Origin: Botryllus schlosseri
Taxonomy: Eukaryota
DNA: 64,000 nucleotides
Assembly (NCBI GenBank): GCA_051294905.1
Contig: CM119371.1
Coordinates: 15,998,001-16,062,000, forward strand
Reading direction: 5' to 3'
The position numbers were made by a program, and so were the translations under genes. The notes under the pieces were generated by a model. The model searched no databases, had not been told where the DNA came from, and worked only from the letters and a program-made list of their open reading frames with translations. Of the stretch, positions 25,834 to 26,091 are shown piece by piece (the first letter of the stretch is position 1; each line of letters opens with the position of its first letter).

Positions 25834-26091
25834 ATGGAATTATCAAGAGTATCACCTTCGATCACTGAAGAAACGGATGAAATTATATTCGAAGCATATT
25901 CCTTGACCAGGAATTTTATCATGTACAAACTCGACGGCTCATGCGTTAAGGTAAATACGAAAGCAGAGAGAACCTTACGTCGAGTTGGGGATGAAATATT
26001 CGAGCGACATCGAACTGTCCCAAACGCAGTCTCCAAACGTCTCCGCTATTTGCACTTTTTCACATTTTATAACACCTTAAGTAGTACTTAA
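25834..26091 (+). CDS. Truncated Bcl-2-family protein (BH4-like plus BH3), 85 aa; possibly a pseudogene fragment
   Basis: EAYSLTRNFIMYKL resembles BH4/helix 1 (Bcl-xL ELVVDFLSYKL); TLRRVGDEIFERHR fits the BH3 LxxxGD core (Mcl-1 TLRRVGD); Kozak-like AGCATGG; AATAAA at 26106; the last ~13 codons come from a repeated segment. Confidence 0.6.
   Translation: MELSRVSPSITEETDEIIFEAYSLTRNFIMYKLDGSCVKVNTKAERTLRRVGDEIFERHRTVPNAVSKRLRYLHFFTFYNTLSST

Follow-up and report, generated by a model that had tools for sequence, protein, structure and literature searches.

The window, i.e., the whole stretch of 64,000 nucleotides of the Botryllus schlosseri genome analysed here (contig CM119371.1, positions 15,998,001 to 16,062,000), harbors a palindromic element of 15,586 bp (22280..37865) with (AGT)2 ends and an arm identity of 99.78%. 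It is flanked by a 6-bp target-site duplication (TGTGTT at 22274..22279 on the left and the same six bases at 37866..37871 on the right). The left end (22280..22471, + strand) starts with AGTAGT, followed by about 25 variable bases and then the motif CCAAT..GCCACGTC, which is common to the Polintons of this genome. Further inward, diverged repeats with a length of about 200 bp form two arrays (26143-27097 and 27514-28682, within 26143..28682), and in the centre (30042..30104) a GC-rich stem closes an asymmetric loop of about 45 bases that is conserved across the family. Thus, the element displays the hallmarks of Polintons/Mavericks, namely terminal inverted repeats, (AGT)2 ends, and a 6-bp target-site duplication; duplications of 6 bp were also detected in all 14 related elements for which both ends were in hand. 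The PolB, integrase, ATPase, and capsid proteins of a related element gave no tblastn match in the window, and since these core Polinton genes were not found, we classified the element as a non-autonomous derivative. Its arm shares only the first c. 200 bases with the PolB-bearing elements compared, and neither the central loop nor a source for its motif was found in 20 stretches of non-palindromic or IAP elements, so that no direct parent of the palindromes was found.

Several observations concern the fine structure of the palindromes. An inverted repeat of 126 bp with 90% likeness lies just upstream of the ORF in each arm (25332-25457 / 25691-25816 in the window). The element ends (22286-22335 in the window; L032-L209) are mosaics with 46 distinct 60-base ends and 31 variable positions. 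Linkage between end positions drops from 0.45 at a distance of 1-2 bases to the shuffled level beyond 20 bases, and both ends of one element agree over the end stretch in six of six pairs compared, one of which has an extra AGT; this may point to exchange on a very fine scale and to one end having been copied from its partner. The motif of the central loop occurs at 161 places (≤2 mismatches), many of them without Bcl-2, and one loop strand is rich in G and, with its four short G runs, resembles a quadruplex by eye. The loop of lineage B differs, with 34-35 bases, and follows the same design (L213-L227). Tandem palindromic units (L098, L101, and L107) carry loops of identical orientation at distances of 6-9 kb; they may represent concatemers from replication, duplications in tandem, or effects of the assembly.

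Elsewhere in the window, two intronless ORFs of 527 aa (3773-5356, +) and 568 aa (12516-14222, -) were detected, which are 74% alike in DNA and appear BTB-Kelch-like by eye. Short ORFs at 52169-53038 resemble, also by eye, a broken non-LTR retrotransposon, and positions 60344-60914 form an imperfect palindrome of 570 bp.

The 85-codon reading frame of the arms

Each arm carries an ORF of 85 codons, at 25834-26091 (+) and, as an identical second copy, at 34054-34311 (-). The copies face inward, as had been described in an earlier note on this DNA, which also regarded the ORF as the only protein-like cargo; for the window element this holds, as among eight element proteins compared, Bcl-2 alone matched the window. 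Both peptides quoted there and the good Kozak context (A at -3, G at +4) were found again. Codons 1-72 (25834..26049, +) belong to a captured Mcl-1-like gene and comprise helices 1-3 including BH3, with helix limits taken from the predicted model of a full-length copy. The frame then runs into repeated sequence at about 26050, as already seen before: positions 26050..26091 (+) comprise a deletion junction with a 3-bp microhomology (CTA) and 13 codons plus stop derived from a non-coding repeat, of which 26053-26143 recurs at 27269-27359 and 24896-24986. The downstream AATAAA is indeed present (26106..26111, +), but it lies inside this repeat and is not the gene's own 3' end. Directly in front of the ATG, an alignment of the host gene with seven element copies revealed the 3' end of host intron 1 (25808..25833, +), in which ctctgac is kept and the acceptor is changed. 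An upstream non-coding exon (donor at about 25550, acceptor just before the ATG) was considered and rejected; the expected joint did not turn up in RNA reads, and what resembles an acceptor is this intron remnant.

Searches with the 85-aa ORF alone gave no match in Pfam and, in PDB, a weak and non-significant best match to an Mcl-1 BH3 peptide (E 1.4). Alignments were obtained with Styela clava bcl-2-like protein 2 (35/68 identity, E 5e-20), with an exon of the host gene described below (51/71, E 1e-35), and with a profile of 44 non-element Bcl-2 homologues (probability 97%, E 7.5e-11). Judged by these alignments, the likeness of residues 2-72 to the Bcl-2 family is beyond chance, in agreement with the family assignment made earlier. 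Two details of that assignment did not stand: the K of the helix-1 motif YKL occurred in just two of 30 truncated copies examined, and among solved proteins it is Mcl-1 that comes closest rather than Bcl-xL or Bok. The ORF shows homology to helix 1 and BH3 and, as previously noticed, lacks NWGR (BH1), BH2, and a membrane tail; the complete helical bundle is missing as well, all being deleted after codon 72. In the collinear copy L045, the repeat joined to codon 72 in the window sits about 630 bases downstream, and from this comparison the loss is read as a deletion of about 630 bp that took BH1, BH2, the intron, and the membrane tail.

Full-length copies, host donor, and carriers

A search of the genome (495 Mb, 219 contigs) with the ORF, in which 150 of 382 candidates were scored, led mostly to inward-facing pairs, many with open frames of 180-230 codons; the 20 such loci examined encoded full Bcl-2 proteins or shorter breaks thereof. 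Pfam Bcl-2 was matched by all five full-length copies searched (E c. 1e-21). A genome search with this profile placed all 150 scored of its 290 candidates above the cut-off, 149 of them without stop, counts that are lower bounds and biased to intact copies. In PDB sequence matches, the best solved relatives of the full-length protein are Mcl-1. Its predicted model (pLDDT 92) revealed seven helices with NRZ, Bcl-xL, and Bcl-2 as nearest folds; Bax, Bak, and Bok share this fold and were also among the structural matches. In the gene, the BH2 motif GGW is followed by a GT-AG intron and an exon of 37 codons with a tail that is hydrophobic by eye, and the full-length cargo thus carries BH3, BH1, BH2, the helical bundle, and a tail exon.

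A strict test (ATG, open first exon, GT-AG intron, and tail exon) was passed by 72 of 96 sampled elements, taken with one arm each from the best-scoring matches, which favours intact copies. NWGR was kept in 69 of these 72, and among the 24 failing copies were two of an intronless second-family form and two with an in-frame deletion of 33 bases. Since other copies break at codons different from that of the window, the truncation in the window is one of a series of deletions. In the sub-lineage L066, L113, L126-L130, and L133, the intron is shortened from about 184 to 58 bases with both splice sites kept, a further sign of maintained splicing. Locus L064 (contig C11, 6.13 Mb) is a full-length copy with AGG instead of the new ATG, either a later loss or an intermediate. 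A word-based homologue search with the full-length exon found no homologue among 17 candidates, and a scan of viral contigs no relative among four pattern matches. Two close relatives (P0003 and P0004) came from other samples and may be element-borne.

The nearest named relative of the cargo is Styela clava bcl-2-like protein 2 (49%), and this protein had one distinct top match in the genome, a gene of three coding exons (233 aa) on contig C14, around which no palindrome or element DNA was found within 30 kb. The element copies are c. 75% identical to this host gene at the DNA level; they start inside its intron 1, retain intron 2, and lack the first exon. Their new start reads ACC ATG GAA compared with ACC AAA GAA in the host, and ATGG was found at the start of 72 of the 73 copies retained in the comparison. 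A protein tree with 26 rows grouped all 13 element rows in a single clade (100/99) that is sister to the host gene (100/99), with Styela outside. Altogether, the gene was captured once at the DNA level from the host gene, whereby the first exon was dropped and the ATG arose from an AAA codon. The direction would have been from host to element, as the host gene has an extra exon that is also present in Styela. A full-length parent, either a host gene or one borne by Polintons, had been proposed as the object of a search; both were found, with the gene on C14 as the origin.

Four types of elements are of importance here. The first (a) is a Polinton family of about 18 kb with a BIR gene, a 424-aa ORF, PolB, ATPase, integrase, and capsid, whose mapped copy has no Bcl-2. 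In the second (b; 11 loci), the backbone is that of (a) with 93-99% identity, and Bcl-2, head to head with the BIR gene, replaces the 424-aa ORF and nearly all of PolB. The third (c; four elements) belongs to a second Polinton family (PolB 64% identical), in which a Bcl-2 without intron and tail is situated about 270 bases inward of one end and a BIR gene close to the opposite end; this Bcl-2 has also lost the Gly-Asp of BH3. The fourth (d) comprises the palindromes of lineages A and B with the common end motif and a conserved central loop. Accordingly, the relic of a Polinton Bcl-2 accessory gene, one option of the earlier note, is supported, as full-length and host-derived copies occur in two Polinton families and in sister palindromes.

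Putative helper elements in this genome have PolB, integrase, ATPase, and capsid genes between matching ends. Their products include an A32 ATPase, an rve integrase, and a DJR capsid with a weak match (E 0.002). One ORF we take to be PolB from its three polymerase motifs; Pfam DNA_pol_B_2 gave no match, and a PDB sequence search with this ORF revealed zinc-finger matches only. No Pfam match was obtained for two helper ORFs with lengths of 299 aa and 245 aa. When the genome was searched with Pfam DNA_pol_B_2 and the DJR capsid, these searches found none though the genes are present, and were thus too insensitive. The IAP cargo (BIR, E 1.9e-18) is present in 42 nearly identical copies, of which 11 are arranged head to head with Bcl-2. 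Several mobile IAP genes were observed (L096:3530-4162; L203, L206, L207, and L212): a gene with one BIR occurs in Polintons and in a single palindrome, genes with three BIRs form inverted pairs, and an intronless gene with three BIRs and a RING exists in many copies (632 candidates). Situated between the IAP and the Bcl-2 gene, and also present in many of the palindromes, is an orphan ORF of 91-95 aa (61 loci, including L050:3705-3983), which is absent from the arm in the window.

As the fold does not separate the two classes of the family, the captured gene might instead be pro-death, i.e., of the Bax/Bak/Bok type, or a dominant inhibitor, serving cell exit or defence. The dropped N-terminal host exon and the loss of the BH3 Gly-Asp and the tail in the second family would fit this. 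However, all top sequence matches of the host and element proteins are Mcl-1, A1, Bcl-2-like 10, or Bcl-2, the intact copies nearly all retain NWGR, and the gene travels with IAP genes, and we therefore regard a pro-death cargo as extremely unlikely.

Selection, transcription, and decay of the gene

Pairwise Nei-Gojobori dN/dS on 64 distinct sequences resulted in values of 0.15-0.18 between the host gene and the copies. When lineages A, B, and C were compared with each other, the values were 0.24-0.40, and the intervals of all nine comparisons stayed below 1. Subgroups of A gave 0.27-0.54, where three of the six intervals extended to 1, and comparisons within groups gave 0.38-0.85; the second family showed 0.28-0.30. 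Thus, the full-length gene is under purifying selection between lineages, and weaker selection acts among the youngest copies. The low values between lineages and the higher ones within groups indicate an old constraint at the level of lineages that becomes weaker in recent insertions, which would be expected for selection acting during element copying.

RNA evidence was very sparse (68 and 65 aligned reads) and came from other individuals. The predicted splice joint was found in both raw-read RNA runs, with 2 and 4 reads. In run X21, the depth over the tail exon was 18-19 on one strand and 0 on the other, in a single-cell run whose depth is strand- and 3'-biased. The full-length gene is therefore transcribed in sense and spliced, at a low level. 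At four lineage-marking sites in four runs, 44 of 48 read observations, not independent as mates overlap, had the full-length letter, and letters of both lineages A and B were among the reads, so that more than one lineage is transcribed. The truncated-type letter appeared in at most four of the 48, about its share of copies, with neither enrichment nor a sign of silencing. Run X23 revealed no read depth across the junction at 26049/26050, and its loose read ends were largely adapters. None of the indexed runs on record as RNA contained the sequence, and the contigs of runs X1 and X2, which span the intron as well as the exons, were excluded as expression evidence. The RNA check suggested earlier was thus positive for the full-length gene, with spliced reads, and gave no enrichment for the truncated form.

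Intact and spliced copies in large number, together with transcription of more than one lineage, could also mean that the gene is kept for the benefit of the host, as an extra dose of a survival gene in stem or germ cells, with the elements as a mere vehicle. Against this, the constraint is strongest between mobile lineages and fades in recent insertions (0.38-0.85), a quarter of the copies (24/96) fail the strict test, and the gene moved between two Polinton families beside an IAP gene. We consider a benefit to the host very unlikely as the reason for its maintenance.

The truncated lineage has spread and is likely decaying. Its junction was found at 56 places, of which 35 have the 85-codon frame and 21, in 11 elements, do not; in the four of these 11 elements examined, only about codons 52-72 are left. 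It appears that the start and the greater part of BH3 are missing at all 21 places. The window copy nests in lineage A, and its nearest full-length relative differs by five missense changes and one silent change. Comparison of 30 of the 35 truncated copies with one full-length copy revealed 4 silent, 14 missense, and 2 nonsense changes, resulting in a pN/pS of 1.2; with 20 changes in total, the power of this test is low (binomial P 0.72). The same 72 codons in full-length lineages, used as controls, gave 0.71 and 0.45, so that codons 1-72 are less constrained anyway. One truncated copy has lost its ATG. Within this low-power test, the shortened lineage evolves as if neutral, and the comparison across copies, which had been proposed as dN/dS, came out as for a relic. 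The 85-aa ORF is likely a relic shortened by deletion that decays without function.

The second option of the earlier note, a BH3-only toxin or suicide module, was not supported. Here, the truncation would have created an Mcl-1S-like protein exposing BH3, which blocks the full-length protein of host or element and thereby kills or sensitises cells. There is a precedent in human MCL-1S, which is described in the available text as pro-apoptotic, lacking BH1, BH2, and tail, and binding only MCL-1L (PMC11655658); it likewise keeps BH3, and MCL-1 is the best sequence match here. The best, though weak, PDB match of the ORF is the Mcl-1 BH3 peptide, the BH3 core is intact in the 30 truncated copies apart from one E54K and two R46I, and the lineage spread to 35 sites with the ORF. 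However, MCL-1S is a regulated splice form, whereas the 85-aa ORF results from a genomic deletion and shows no sign of selection: pN/pS is 1.2, two of the changes are nonsense, and one start is lost. The loss of the start and most of BH3 did not prevent a sub-lineage from reaching about 11 elements, breaks at other codons elsewhere make the truncation one of a deletion series, and the RNA runs offered neither enrichment of truncated-type letters nor depth at the junction in X23. We regard a killer function as very unlikely.

Proposed history of the gene and comparison with known systems

Taken together, we consider it likely that the ORF in the window is a neutral relic and that the full-length gene serves as an anti-death accessory, which goes back to a single capture, received a new start, and is shared by Polintons and by palindromic dependants that are copied and inserted by helpers. 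A host Mcl-1-like gene was captured once at the DNA level, starting in intron 1 and with a new ATG, and then passed among Polinton families and palindromes. The PolB and integrase of helpers would copy and insert the palindromes from their ends, a dependence to which the shared ends and the 6-bp duplications point, and a single strand may fold back on the central loop during copying, as expected for a hairpin-type mode. The full-length protein would bind host BH3 or Bax/Bak-type proteins and, together with the IAP cargo, keep the cell alive while the elements multiply; its Mcl-1 likeness and the adjoining IAP gene make a pro-survival role likely. As the palindromes would spread without the gene, deletions such as that in the window would be tolerated. 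A more far-reaching idea, which we put forward tentatively and with considerable doubt, is that hairpin satellites of Polintons carry, under selection of their own, the Mcl-1-like gene remodelled for expression by itself and swap it and IAPs with two helper families; death-resistant germ or stem cells carrying them would outcompete others, making the satellites cell-level drivers and the stripped copies cheaters.

Parts of this are already known. Adintoviruses were reported to harbor Bcl2 and IAP homologues, mentioned in one sentence of the available text with no origin given (Starrett et al. 2021, PMC8502044), and these and animal Polintons share PolB, rve integrase, packaging ATPase, capsid, and both accessory genes with the elements described here. 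In contrast, the elements of this genome obtained Bcl-2 from a gene of the host itself, retain its intron in most lineages, and use a new start codon; in one form the gene stands where PolB would be, and the majority of the copies examined reside in palindromes without viral core genes. Vertebrate Mavericks share the (AGT)2 end motif, terminal inverted repeats, and the 6-bp duplication (Barreat and Katzourakis 2021, PMC8097293), whereas the window element is one end-to-end inverted repeat around a short loop and lacks the core genes tested; the terms "palindrom" and "nonautonomous" do not appear in the available text of that paper. Host-like, intron-bearing cargo near an element end is also known from the nematode Mavericks wasp and krma (Widen et al., 10.1101/2022.07.12.499685), where, as far as described in the accessible part, it consists of proteases and kinases moved between species, one of them a toxin; here it is an apoptosis regulator that came from the same host lineage and was multiplied in it. 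Giant planarian LTR retrotransposons likewise are mobile elements with a BCL-2 domain, located in the retroelement polyprotein according to the text at hand (PMC6431247), unlike the separate spliced gene in a DNA element found here. A literature search, with most subscription journals and Repbase outside its scope, revealed no report on palindromic Polinton derivatives with Bcl-2 cargo. New in this study are the donor gene, the new start codon, the carriers with PolB replacement and of the second family, and the neutral status of the 85-aa form.

On its own, the mini-ORF represents ordinary decay. Its full-length relatives, spread by Polintons in well over a hundred copies, present the steps by which an anti-apoptotic gene is gained within one genome: the donor locus, the new start, an intron retained and then lost, transfer from one family to another, substitution for the polymerase, entry into palindromic dependants, and loss. 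Mobile copies make up the bulk of the Bcl-2 and IAP gene counts in this genome. That the cargo was selected while being mobile is an indirect sign that Polintons replicating in an animal encounter cell death.
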